NCBI GenBank assembly: GCA_036262455.1 | Contig: DATAIW010000252.1 | Span: 1 to 41,809, forward strand | Length of the DNA stretch: 41,809 nt | Source: Candidatus Limnocylindrales bacterium | GTDB taxonomy: Bacteria > Chloroflexota > Limnocylindria > Limnocylindrales > CSP1-4 | Direction: 5' to 3' | Shown here: one piece after another, positions 13,006 to 16,849 of the stretch | Position numbering within the stretch: position 1 is the stretch's first letter | Layout: each line of letters opens with the position of its first letter | The notes under the pieces: model-generated | Told to the model about the DNA's origin: nothing | The model's input: only the letters and a program-made list of their open reading frames with translations | Databases searched by the model: none | Position numbers and translations under genes: made by a program

Positions 13006-13959
13006 TTACTCGGCCGCGCCGAGGATGAGGGCGAGCATGCCCATCTTCAGCACGACGCCGTTGAAGGCTTCCGCCCAGTAGCGCTGGTGGCGGGTGGCGT
13101 CCACGTCGGCCAGCAGCTCGTCCATCCGCGGCAGCGAGTGGAGGATGATCGAGCTGCGCTTGGCCTTGTCCTTGAGGAGCTCACGGGTCACGCAGTACTC
13201 GGCCGGCGTGAGGCCGACCTTGTCACCGCGCTCCTCGCGCGAGGCGGTGTAGTCGGCCTGGACGACCGGCTCCATGTAGATGACATCCGCCTCGCCGATG
13301 ACGTCACGGACGTCCGAGGCCTCCTCGTAGTCCACGTTGAGCGCGTCGATCTCGGCCTTGAACTCGGGCAGGAGGCTCATGTCCGGGGGGCCGACGACGA
13401 TCGCCTTGGCGTCGAACTGCGACAGCGCGTACAGGATCGAATGCATCGTCCGCATCCGCATGTCACCGACCAGGACCCAGGTGAGCCCGTCGAGCGTGCC
13501 CTTCTCGAGGAACGTCGTGTACAGGTCGGTAAGGACCTGGGTCGGGTGCTCGCCCCAGCCGTCGCCGCAGTTGATGACCGGCACGGACGACCACTTGGCC
13601 GCCTCGGCCGGTGCGCCCTGCTGGAAATGCCGGATCGCGATGACGTCCGCGTAGTACTCCAGCATGTGGAACGTGTCCTTGATCGACTCCTGATAGAAGT
13701 CGCCGGCGCGCGTCATCTTCGAGTCGGAGAAGCCGAGGACCTGACCACCGAGACGGTGCATCGCGGCCTCGTGCGACAGGCGCGTCCGCGTCGACGGCTG
13801 GTAGAAAGCCGTCAGCATCGTCTTGTTCTTGAGCAGGTCGGTGTTCCGGCGGTCACGCGCGAATGGGCGGAGGTCATCCGCGACCTGGAAGACGCGGAAG
13901 AACTCGTCCCTGCTGAAGTCCTTGAGGGACAGGATGTCGCGGCCGAGGAAACTTCTCAT
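13006..13959 (-). CDS. Aspartate-carbamoyltransferase-like carbamoyltransferase paralog with an altered acceptor pocket
   Basis: PSTRTR, IRH, EHPTQ and HSLPR align with the ATCase catalytic-chain motifs. The E. coli YMTRVQKER segment reads YMEPVVQADY here, and the Lys84-loop lysines are absent. There is a 4-bp ATGA overlap with the upstream gene. Confidence 0.85.
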   Translation of the reverse strand: MRSFLGRDILSLKDFSRDEFFRVFQVADDLRPFARDRRNTDLLKNKTMLTAFYQPSTRTRLSHEAAMHRLGGQVLGFSDSKMTRAGDFYQESIKDTFHMLEYYADVIAIRHFQQGAPAEAAKWSSVPVINCGDGWGEHPTQVLTDLYTTFLEKGTLDGLTWVLVGDMRMRTMHSILYALSQFDAKAIVVGPPDMSLLPEFKAEIDALNVDYEEASDVRDVIGEADVIYMEPVVQADYTASREERGDKVGLTPAEYCVTRELLKDKAKRSSIILHSLPRMDELLADVDATRHQRYWAEAFNGVVLKMGMLALILGAAE

Positions 13960-15353
13960 GATCTGGTGCGCTCCTTCTCGAGGTGGCGGGTGATACCGGA
14001 AAAGCAGACGACGACGTTCTCGTCGGGGTCGAGCGCGCCGCTGCGCGCGAGGTGGAGGAGACCGGCAAGCCCGGACGAGCCGGTGTGGTCGACGTCGATC
14101 CCGGTCGACGCGCGGGCGAGGTCGTTGGCGGCGTGGAGCGTCGCCTCGTCGACGACGATTGGTGCGCCGCCGGTGCGCAGCATTCCGGCCACGACGGCGC
14201 GCCAGTCGTACGTCTCGTCATCGAGGATTCCGTGGGCGATGCTGTGCGGCGTCTCCTCCCACGGCCACATGAACTCGGGGCGATGGTTCGCGGCGAAGGC
14301 GAGCGCAGCCTCGATGGTCTCGCCGCTCGTCACGCGCGCCGCAACGCGTTCGTGGGCCCGTGCGAGGGGGAACGCGCCGCGCGTCTGGACGGTGTCGAAC
14401 TGCGGCTGGTTGAGGGTCATGGTGGCCTCGCCGGCGTTGGCGAAACCGGCGATGACCGACGAGGCGAGGGCGCCGCCGCCGACCTGGATCACGACCCGGT
14501 CGATCCGGGACGGGCCGTCCAGCTGTCCGACGGCCGAGGCCATCTCGAAGCCGAGCGTCTCGCCACCTTCGACCGCGAAGGCATTGAGGTTCCCCTGGCA
14601 GGTAAAGGGCACAGCGCCCTCGGCAACCGCCTCCAGGAGACGCAGGTAGGTCGGGTCGCCAGCCACGCCCGGTTCCCGGTCGCAGACCGTCAGCTCTGCC
14701 CCGAGGGAGCGGAGGCGCGTGACGACCGCGGGATCGGCATCGGTCGGGATGAAGACGAGCAGCCGGCGGTCGGCCGCGCGCGCGACGACCGCGGCCGCGA
14801 GCGCCGCGTTGCCGCAACTCGCGATCGCGAGCGGTGCATCGGCGGTCGCGCCAGCACCGACCTCGAGCTCGAGCAGTGTCCCGAAGAGGTGACGGGCCTT
14901 GTGCGATCCCGACACGTTGCCGGTCTCGTCCTTGACCCAGACGCCCCCGGCCTGCGACAGGCCGAGCGCGACGGAGAGGGCGTCATTTCGCGCAAACGGC
15001 GTGACCCGGAACCCGTGGCCGTCGACCTCGGCGACCGCGTTGTCCAACCGCTCGACCATCGCCACGTAGTCCTCGTCGCTCCAACCCGCGGCGCGCGCGG
15101 CGTGCCAGGCGTGGAACAGGCGCCGGTACGCGACGAACGGGTTCGGGTCGTCGGTGACCGCGAAGGGTCCGGCCGCCGGGTCGAGGTGTCGGACGAGGAC
15201 ATGGTCGATCCCGTCGCCGGCGACGCTCGCCGGACAGACGAGCGGGACCGGTGCGCCGTCGGCCGGCCGCGTGCCGCAGCCGGAGCAGGCGAACCAGGTT
15301 GGGAACCGGCCCTCGGTTGCGGGCCGGCCGCGGACCTCGGGTTGGGCGGTCAT
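13956..15353 (-). CDS. Fold-type-II PLP-dependent enzyme (threonine synthase / TrpB-like), 465 aa
   Basis: [15 protein letters not shown] is a PLP-lysine-type motif, and [10 protein letters not shown] is a glycine loop. The N-terminal segment is Cys-containing (FACSGCG...LVCP). The start is the ATG at 15353 (MTAQPEV), which overlaps the upstream stop (ATGA). Confidence 0.8.
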
Positions 15354-16849
15354 GACAGTGAGCTGGCGCCCGTTCGGTCGTTGAACTCGTCGATCATCTC
15401 GTCCCAGGCAGGGATGAGAGACCGCAGGTCGCGCCACCAGTCCTGGGATCGGCGGGCCTCGAACTCGGCGAGCGGCGTGCCTTGCTGTTCGACCCAGGTG
15501 AAGTATCCGAGGTTGAAGATCCGGTCGCGATCGGCACGCGTCAGCTCGAGCAGGTGGTCCTCGCCCGCGCCCAGGACATGCCGCCCGAAGGTCTCGGCGG
15601 CCGCGACGGCATCGAAGCCGCCGGCGAAGTCGCGGGCCGTGATCTTGGCCTGCTCCGAGAGGTACATCGCCGCACCGTCCGTGGCGACCGTGACGACGGC
15701 CTCATCGGGGCCGAGGTCGAGGACCTTGGCAGTCTTGATCGCGGCGAGGATGTTGCAGATGCTCGAGATGCCGAACGAGCCGAGCTCCGCGATGAGCGCC
15801 GCCGGCACGCCACGCCGCTCGGCGAGGTACGTGCGGCCCGCGTCGGTGTTGAAGACGGACAGCACCTGGTCGGTGGCGACGTCCGAGATCGCGATGACCA
15901 GGTCCGTGTTCATCACGTTGTGGATGAGCGGCACGTGCTTGTCGCCGATGCCCTGGATGTTGTGCTCGCCGAAGCCGTTCTCCAGGAGCGTCGGGCACTC
16001 GAGTGCCTCGACCGCGGCGATCTTCGTCCCGTACCGGTCCTTGAGCCAGTCCCCCGCCGCGATCGTCCCGGCCGATCCGGTCGCGGATACGAACGCCGCC
16101 GCCGTGATGTTCGGCTGGGCCGTGCGCTGGTCCTCGACGATTGCCTCGAGCGCCCGACCGGTCACGAGGTAGTGGCCGAGGTGGTTCCCGAACTCGGCGA
16201 ACTGGTTGAGGATCACGTTCGCGGAGTCCGCGGCCAGCTCAGCGCACTTGTCGTAGATCTCCTTCACGTTGCTCTCGGTGCCCGGCGTCCGGATGATGTC
16301 GGAGGGGTCCGTCACCCACTGCTCCAGCCAGTCGAAGCGCTCCTGGCTCATGCCCTCGGGCAGGACCGCGACGCCGCGGCACCCCATGATCCGGCTGATC
16401 GCCACGCCACCGCGGCAGTAGTTGCCGGTGGACGGCCAGATCGCGCGCTGCTCGATCGGGTCGAACTGGCCGGTGACGATCCGCGGCGCCAGGCAGGCGT
16501 ACGCGGCGAGAACCTTGTGCGCGGCGATCATCGGGAAGCGGTCGCCGAGGGCGATGATGATCGGGGCGGCGACGCCGGTCAGCGAAGTCGGCAGGACCAG
16601 GTGCTGCGGAACGCCGGCCCGCGAACGGCGGTCGGCATCGTTGTACCAGTGGACCCGGAACAGGTTCCGGGCATCGGGCGCATCCGGGTCGACGCCGGCG
16701 AGTCCGGCCTCGACATCGGCCGGAATCGTGCCCGGATCGGCGAGCTGCGCGAACGTCGGCATCCGGATCTTCGCGTCCCGGAAACGCATCGCAGCGCGTT
16801 CATAGACCGCGCTATCGACGACGTCCCGCTCGAGTCCCTGCTGTCCCAT
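15350..16849 (-). CDS. Fold-type-II PLP-dependent enzyme (cysteine synthase / PLP-dependent lyase-thiolase-like), 499 aa
   Basis: Candidate PLP lysine in [13 protein letters not shown]. The [12 protein letters not shown] glycine-rich phosphate-binding loop and [10 protein letters not shown] resemble PALP-domain enzymes. First gene of the minus-strand string, with a GAGGA RBS. Confidence 0.7.

Follow-up and report, generated by a model that had tools for sequence, protein, structure and literature searches.

Which enzyme completes the reductive degradation of purines in a bacterium whose gene cluster holds no YgeX? The question is raised by a stretch of 41,809 nucleotides (contig DATAIW010000252.1 of assembly GCA_036262455.1) from Candidatus Limnocylindrales bacterium, a member of the Chloroflexota. 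The whole of this stretch is called the window here, and the genome to which it belongs is a metagenome-assembled genome (MAG), 84% complete. The window carries a variant form, from the Chloroflexota, of the gene cluster for the reductive urate (2,8-dioxopurine) pathway, and its minus-strand operon begins with two genes for pyridoxal phosphate (PLP) enzymes, designated PALPA and PALPB. That pathway was elucidated in gut bacteria in 2025: urate is converted to 2,8-dioxopurine, which is reduced by YgfK and whose rings are opened by SsnA and then HyuA; the two ureido groups are removed via YgeW/YqeA and YgeY, and YgeX converts the 2,3-diaminopropionate (DAP) to pyruvate (10.1101/2025.05.19.654654; 10.1101/2025.04.24.650524).

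The two genes probably constitute the YgeX-equivalent terminal module of an environmental (Chloroflexota/soil-type) form of this pathway. A YgeX-type terminal role is the best fit because YgeX is absent, because a CysK-like/ThrC-like pair occupies its place, and because locus L106, described below, exhibits the swap. The features of the pair are as follows.

15350..16849, minus strand: PALPA, 499 aa, first gene of the operon, with an ATG start and GAGGA upstream
13956..15353, minus strand: PALPB, 465 aa from its ATG; an alternative longer GTG frame runs from 15437
15350..15353, minus strand: ATGA stop/start overlap of PALPA and PALPB, read directly from the sequence
13956..13959, minus strand: ATGA stop/start overlap of PALPB and the ATCase-like gene, read in the same way
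16514..16516, minus strand: codon of K112 (AAHK), predicted Schiff-base lysine of PALPA, which aligns with the SGSVKDR lysine of canonical CysK-like proteins
14898..14900, minus strand: codon of K152 (SGSHKAR), predicted Schiff-base lysine of PALPB, which aligns with the SFKDR lysine of ThrC
15201..15287, minus strand: putative N-terminal Cys3-His knuckle of PALPB (C23, C26, C40, H51), all four residues invariant

A sequence-only reading of the window had taken both genes for PALP-fold enzymes with candidate lysines in AAHKV and SGSHKAR, Gly-rich phosphate loops and ATGA overlaps joining them to each other and to the next gene, and all of this was borne out. The Pfam PALP model (PF00291, gathering cut-off 35 bits) matches PALPA with 40.6 bits, the match being limited to residues 133–337, and PALPB with 120.5 bits. 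K112 is invariant in 51 PALPA orthologues and in 76 sequences of a sister clade, PALPA2, while K152 is invariant in 55 PALPB orthologues. So are the phosphate loops GSAGT (258–262) of PALPA and GGG (292–294) of PALPB among the orthologues aligned.

PALPA is a predicted CysK-derived fold-type-II PLP enzyme. Its AlphaFold2 (AF2) model has a pLDDT of 90.8, and the best Foldseek matches are CysK, beta-cyanoalanine synthase, CBS and Fn1055 (TM ~0.8 on target; 22–30% identity); for the models of both proteins the Foldseek matches are overall only 15–30% identical in sequence. PALPA carries conserved helical extensions at its N-terminus (~1–100) and C-terminus (~400–499), and the family possesses invariant residues, R146 and D303-K304-H305, which are foreign to canonical CysK. 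The Asp in the GIGD motif was considered as a marker of purine-cluster enzymes and dropped, since a CBS-like housekeeping gene has Glu there.

PALPB is predicted to be a divergent fold-type-II PLP enzyme resembling ThrC and threonine dehydratase. Its AF2 model (pLDDT 92.0) finds threonine deaminase, ThrC and serine racemase as the best Foldseek matches. The Cys-containing segment which the sequence-only reading thought might be a zinc ribbon is modelled as a small beta-hairpin unit. As a Cys3-His knuckle the suggestion is plausible, since the four residues are invariant and canonical ThrC-like partners in sister clusters carry CxxC...CxxC at the same place; we regard the segment as a candidate zinc knuckle.

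Might the two genes simply be a housekeeping cysteine synthase and threonine synthase, present here by chance? PALPA relatives are labelled "cysteine synthase" by metagenome pipelines, and the best NCBIfam matches of the pair are indeed CysK for PALPA [TIGR01139, 77 bits, cut-off 351; TIGR01136 (CysK/CysM), 74 bits, cut-off 344] and a ThrC model for PALPB [NF006050, 72.5 bits, cut-off 303]. These scores are far under the cut-offs, however, and other contigs of the genome hold a genuine ThrC, with 324 bits against TIGR00260 in a genome search which does not report PALPB (E <= 1e-10), and other CysK/CBS-like genes, with 322 and 309 bits. Identity with housekeeping CysK and ThrC is ruled out by this, and the genes stay linked to SsnA/XDH clusters from phylum to phylum, so that chance presence is hardly credible.

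Nor is either gene YgeX, as the earlier reading had supposed from its motifs. Against the YgeX model NF006058 (cut-off 276 bits) PALPB scores 16.4 bits and PALPA gives no match. The catalytic Asp120 of DAP ammonia-lyase (PMC4000059), found in the motif TDGNH, is not kept: PALPB has SCGNA, with Cys, and PALPA has STGNY, with Thr. The invariant Cys180 of PALPB occupies the position of Asp120 when mapped on 4D9G; this residue and the acidic motif DDETYDW fit a two-base or cation-binding site, but prove nothing. The thiolase-type step which had also been proposed for the pair is ruled out, as the OrtB model NF040741 (cut-off 550 bits) gives 17.8 bits with PALPB and no match with PALPA. No over-cut-off match to NF006058 was found anywhere in this genome (a MAG 84% complete), nor in 29 of the 30 other genomes with PALPA. 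It should be added that one published neighbourhood analysis scored any PF00291 gene near SsnA as YgeX.

The PALPA family is large (more than 8000 proteins were found, with relatives in at least 594 species), and orthologues 65–87% identical occur across at least eight phyla, among them Chloroflexota, Actinomycetota, Acidobacteriota, Eisenbacteria, Gemmatimonadota, Myxococcota, Proteobacteria (including the cultured Rhodovulum sp. PH10) and NC10. Where at least 1 kb of sequence was available downstream of PALPA, a PALPB orthologue lies directly downstream on the same strand in 67 of 74 loci. Roughly one in three of the orthologous junctions (~21 of 64) has a 4-nt overlap; adjacency this regular is not due to chance. 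PALPB is a single-copy gene adjoining PALPA in 26 of 31 genomes. An obligate heteromer or fusion was rejected, since the 150 best representatives (the longest of 665 aa) include no PALPA-PALPB fusion and PALPA is also found without PALPB. The 665-aa sequences (P0019/P0020), seemingly long PALPA homologues, result from an internal tandem duplication of residues ~57–213 which is probably an assembly artefact.

The core most often seen is XDH-SsnA-like-PALPA-PALPB, which in L099 forms a free-standing operon of four genes. In many loci ATCase-like orthologues (74–97% identical) come after PALPB. The decarbamoylation genes vary by locus (ATCase-like plus OTCase-like plus kinase, or YgeW-like plus kinase plus M20, or M20 carbamoylase plus Amidohydro_3), and so does the reductase: it is YgfK in full-length or short form, or else a luciferase-like (F420-type) enzyme. 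The short YgfK homologue, of 600–700 aa, comprises the N-terminal reductase part and Fe-S but not the GltD-like NAD(P)H/FAD module; it replaces full-length YgfK in L001:4307-6115 and is also found in other carriers of the pair (G001, G005, G006, G016, G023, G028). Rhodovulum sp. PH10 encodes an OHCU decarboxylase/HIU hydrolase fusion, which belongs to the oxidative urate route, at L090:14822-15712, 3.5 kb from an XDH-SsnA-like-PALPA-PALPB-ferredoxin operon, and may for this reason hold both urate routes.

The sister clade PALPA2 is 43% identical to PALPA and has relatives in at least 533 species, mostly of anaerobic phyla. Its purine-type clusters hold a bona fide YgeY (TIGR03526, 676 bits), SsnA (498 bits) and YgfK together with a hydantoinase-like gene, one to three OTC-like transferases, carbamate kinase and XDH subunits. 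YgeX is the one member of the E. coli set which they lack, and in its place stands a CysK-like gene with or without a ThrC-like one, half of the purine-type loci having a canonical ThrC-like gene as well. ThrC-like genes with a zinc ribbon in purine clusters (L251:9613-10854, L264:17648-18907 and 18 more loci of L180–L258) score 203–217 bits against TIGR00260, above its cut-off of 167, and are probably mis-annotated as threonine synthase.

Elsewhere YgeX itself takes the place of the pair. The Anaerolineae locus L106 couples YgeX to ATCase-like (69% identical) and OTCase-like (70%) genes and carbamate kinase, and in L135 XDH, SsnA (75%) and YgfK are found with YgeX. The PALPA2 clusters, these two swap loci and the CysK-like clusters described next indicate that YgeX has its regular alternative in a CysK-family enzyme, which a ThrC-family partner often accompanies. 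The stretch L106:10001-19790 holds YgeX, FolD, two amidohydrolases, the ATCase-like, OTCase-like and carbamate kinase genes and a further PALP gene (424 aa, 266 bits), and is as such a third combination of lower-pathway enzymes.

In a sample of 201 Chloroflexota genomes PALPA-family genes track SsnA, which is present in 27 of 30 genomes with such a gene versus 18 of 171 without (odds ratio 76, p = 2e-18). For 10 of these 18 the SsnA neighbourhood was fetched. Eight have a CysK-like gene of canonical length (~350 aa) in the XDH/SsnA/OTC cluster, two of them with a ThrC-like gene in addition; one has a ThrC-like gene only, and in one (L259) the fetched 20 kb contain no PLP gene. The ~350-aa CysK-like genes (L260–L263 and L265–L268, from genomes G166, G094, G070, G033, G103, G046, G177 and G114) share a conserved C-terminal tail, …LEVPEREHP.S..DK.KLA.HPLEVIR. 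That of L261, the only one scanned, reaches 355 bits with TIGR01139, barely above the cut-off, and its automatic name would thus be "cysteine synthase A".

The surroundings of the pair in the window, established by profile searches, agree with a place in this pathway.

13006..13959, minus strand: ATCase-like carbamoyltransferase, predicted supplier of the amino-acid substrate (TIGR00670, 245.5 bits, cut-off 237)
11995..12972, minus strand: OTCase-like carbamoyltransferase (OTCace_N and OTCace domains; under all equivalog cut-offs)
10980..11945, minus strand: carbamate kinase (NF009007, 381 bits, cut-off 266)
17096..24312, plus strand: divergent upper-pathway genes for an XdhD-type Mo enzyme, an SsnA-like amidohydrolase and YgfK

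The XdhD-type enzyme scores 967 bits (cut-off 830) with TIGR03311, a "selenium-dependent XDH" model, and YgfK scores 850 bits (cut-off 835) with TIGR03315. The SsnA-like amidohydrolase (19626–20843) has the SsnA model as its best match, but scores 262 bits where the cut-off is 444; being truncated, it covers only positions 52–340 of the 444-position model, and the same short form is found in the close relatives G118, G190 and G217. A nucleobase permease comes after the divergent genes, and a BMP-type ABC importer is among the genes downstream of the PLP pair. The operon ends in an aminotransferase and an oversized transketolase-like gene (2296–5942). An actinomycete contig has this tail too, 74% and 69% identical, and there it lies immediately upstream of PALPA-PALPB (L057:1-4250; L085). 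Solo PALPA genes in Vicinamibacterales (L097) are also adjoined by a class I/II aminotransferase.

The window holds no hydantoinase, YgeY or YgeW, YgeY having been sought in the window and not genome-wide. A D-hydantoinase (564 bits) is present on another contig of the genome; over-cut-off hydantoinases occur in 25 of the 30 other genomes too, and hydantoinases lie beside the pair in ~10 loci. For this reason the notion that a PLP enzyme replaces HyuA was dropped. The sequence-only reading had offered the pair as a functional replacement for YgeX and perhaps for YgeY. The first half of this is favoured by the absence of YgeX, the PALPA2 clusters and the L106 swap; the second is ruled out, because YgeY or other M20 amidases share clusters with the PALPA family. 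In the window the ATCase-like and OTCase-like transferases seem to stand in for YgeW and YgeY, and the OTCase-like enzyme is more likely to be the YgeY substitute than is the PLP pair.

The Mo enzyme brings up another function for PALPA and PALPB, namely that they serve the maturation of its cofactor, for instance as a cysteine- or selenocysteine-type donor of sulfur or selenium. CysK-type enzymes make cysteine or selenocysteine, the XDH of the window matches a selenium-dependent model, and the common four-gene core sets the pair beside the Mo enzyme. In the window, however, the pair is translationally coupled to the lower-pathway carbamoyltransferases and not to XDH; YgeX-type clusters do without such genes, and many loci have PALPA without any XDH. 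We consider a role in cofactor maturation very improbable.

The analysis establishes the fold, the catalytic residues, the gene linkage, the pathway context and the lack of YgeX. What the pair, if it is the terminal module, would act on and make, and how its two members would share the work, we infer as follows. The XdhD-type enzyme, YgfK and the SsnA-like hydrolase would reduce the purine and open its six-membered ring, the second ring being opened by the hydantoinase encoded elsewhere in the genome. The ATCase-like and OTCase-like enzymes with carbamate kinase would then take off the two ureido groups as carbamoyl phosphate, so that DAP would remain. This the PLP pair would convert to pyruvate and ammonia, as YgeX does in E. 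coli and Clostridia. PALPA, the constant member, is the probable beta-eliminating enzyme; aminoacrylate would form on the K112-bound PLP, and the alpha-carboxylate of DAP would presumably be held by the loop S140-T141-G142-N143 and by Q216. PALPB, which often accompanies PALPA but can be dispensed with, may act on the other enantiomer or carry out a second step.

One form that two steps could take is a route via serine, in which PALPA would convert DAP and water to serine and ammonia and PALPB would convert serine to pyruvate. Fn1055 of Fusobacterium, among the structural neighbours of PALPA, makes serine and H2S from cysteine, and the best structural matches of PALPB include threonine deaminases. 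The route accounts for the pair being kept together, and for solo PALPA genes where another serine dehydratase exists. It nevertheless needs more steps than a direct lyase, without energetic gain; moreover, the partner in the sister clusters is a canonical ThrC-like protein rather than a dehydratase-like one, and in 14 of the purine-type PALPA2 clusters no partner lies within 8 kb. On balance we think the serine route unlikely.

Several observations weigh against a YgeX-like terminal role, however it is divided between the two proteins. Two enzymes are kept where YgeX alone suffices, and in five of the 31 genomes PALPA stands alone in unrelated contexts outside purine clusters. PALPA2 loci are not of the purine type in 48 cases out of 77, so that the substrate of the family may be broader than, or other than, DAP. 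A conserved example is L202:1839-17461 (L203, L212, L215 and L221 are similar), which holds an AsnC regulator beside genes for a TonB-type outer-membrane protein, a ThrC-like protein, an unknown 380-aa protein, PALPA2, an amino-acid permease, a D-aminoacylase-like amidohydrolase, an S9 peptidase, a beta-lactamase-family protein and an M14 carboxypeptidase; this looks like a locus for the catabolism of peptides or D-amino acids. Such loci are still compatible with a DAP lyase, since YgeX homologues are themselves mostly stand-alone. Furthermore, YgeX is rare in the phylum (5–7 of the 201 genomes, two of which also have a PALPA2-type gene), which makes its absence alone weak evidence; a plain genome-wide anticorrelation with YgeX was dropped as uninformative for the same reason. 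Enzymes of the CysK, ATCase and OTCase families usually have L-amino acids as substrates, while the gut pathway passes through (R)-configured intermediates, with which the habit of CysK-type enzymes sits poorly. Our literature search for the PALPA and PALPB families found no paper.

Finally, in three or four loci (L047/L092, L103, L115) a PALPA-family gene occurs together with YgeX, which would be redundant were the two activities identical. This co-presence is accommodated by an altered order of reactions, with PALPA acting on a ureido-amino acid that has a free alpha-amine (albizziin, 2-amino-3-ureidopropionate) or fixing the stereochemistry, and with its partner, be it PALPB, the ThrC-like protein or YgeX, as the sole DAP lyase. 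The invariant R146 and D303-K304-H305 and the conserved terminal caps could shape a larger side-chain pocket in PALPA, and PALPB has an ionisable Cys at the Asp120 position of DAP ammonia-lyase. Yet the CysK-like gene is the only PLP enzyme in many purine clusters, were urea eliminated, a carbamoyl group would be lost which two transferases and a kinase are there to harvest, and neither urease nor urea carboxylase was seen in the clusters examined. This arrangement strikes us as distinctly unlikely.

The broader proposition that the PALPA family, with its caps and its invariant R146 and D303-K304-H305, catalyses some reaction absent from the E. coli pathway is put forward tentatively, as rather unlikely. 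Such a reaction could be a direct one on a ureido-amino acid such as albizziin. Alternatively, the lower pathway defined by PALPA could be an L-configured (S-series) one, in keeping with the L-specific ATCase/OTCase-type transferases, and the ThrC-like partner could then be a racemase or a D-specific lyase. If the proposition were true, the second half of reductive purine degradation would follow a chemistry of its own in environmental bacteria.

With a YgeX-like terminal role for the pair, which we continue to prefer, the last step of the pathway would be encoded outside the gut (in Chloroflexota, Actinomycetota, Acidobacteriota, Gemmatimonadota, Cloacimonadota and others) by different and unstudied enzymes. 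Enzymes of the PALPA/PALPB type are now annotated automatically as "cysteine synthase" or "threonine synthase", and assigning their reactions would correct a systematic mis-annotation. For many hundreds of species (at least 594 with a PALPA relative and at least 533 with a PALPA2 relative, counts that are not de-duplicated) it would also make the pathway complete, and it could show whether the soil version differs in its intermediates or stereochemistry and yields two ATP per purine.

Among known systems the pair may be compared firstly with YgeX/DpaL (NF006058; PDB 4D9G, 5YGR). Both belong to the PALP fold type II superfamily and both have a predicted place at the end of a ygfK/ssnA/xdhD-type cluster, where they usually substitute for each other in otherwise similar surroundings. 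Unlike YgeX, the pair consists of two genes; it is not orthologous to YgeX, and its activity is a predicted one. PALPA resembles CysK/CysM, beta-cyanoalanine synthase and the CBS core in fold, in the position of the Schiff-base lysine, in the (S/T)(T/S)GN carboxylate loop, and in Q216, the phosphate loop and the GISS serine. It differs from that group in its length of 499 aa, with a conserved extension of ~100 residues at each end, in having AHK for SVKDR, and in the invariant R146 and GIGDKH; its context is purine-catabolic and not one of sulfur assimilation. PALPB shares its architecture, Cys-rich knuckle and lysine position with ThrC proteins bearing an N-terminal zinc ribbon (NF006050/TIGR00260) and with the threonine dehydratase/serine racemase group, and in the sister clusters its equivalent place is taken by a canonical ThrC-like gene. 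Compared with ThrC it has SHKAR for SFKDR, SCGNA for STGNT/A, a GGG loop for GNAGN/GDGN, and the DDETYDW motif.

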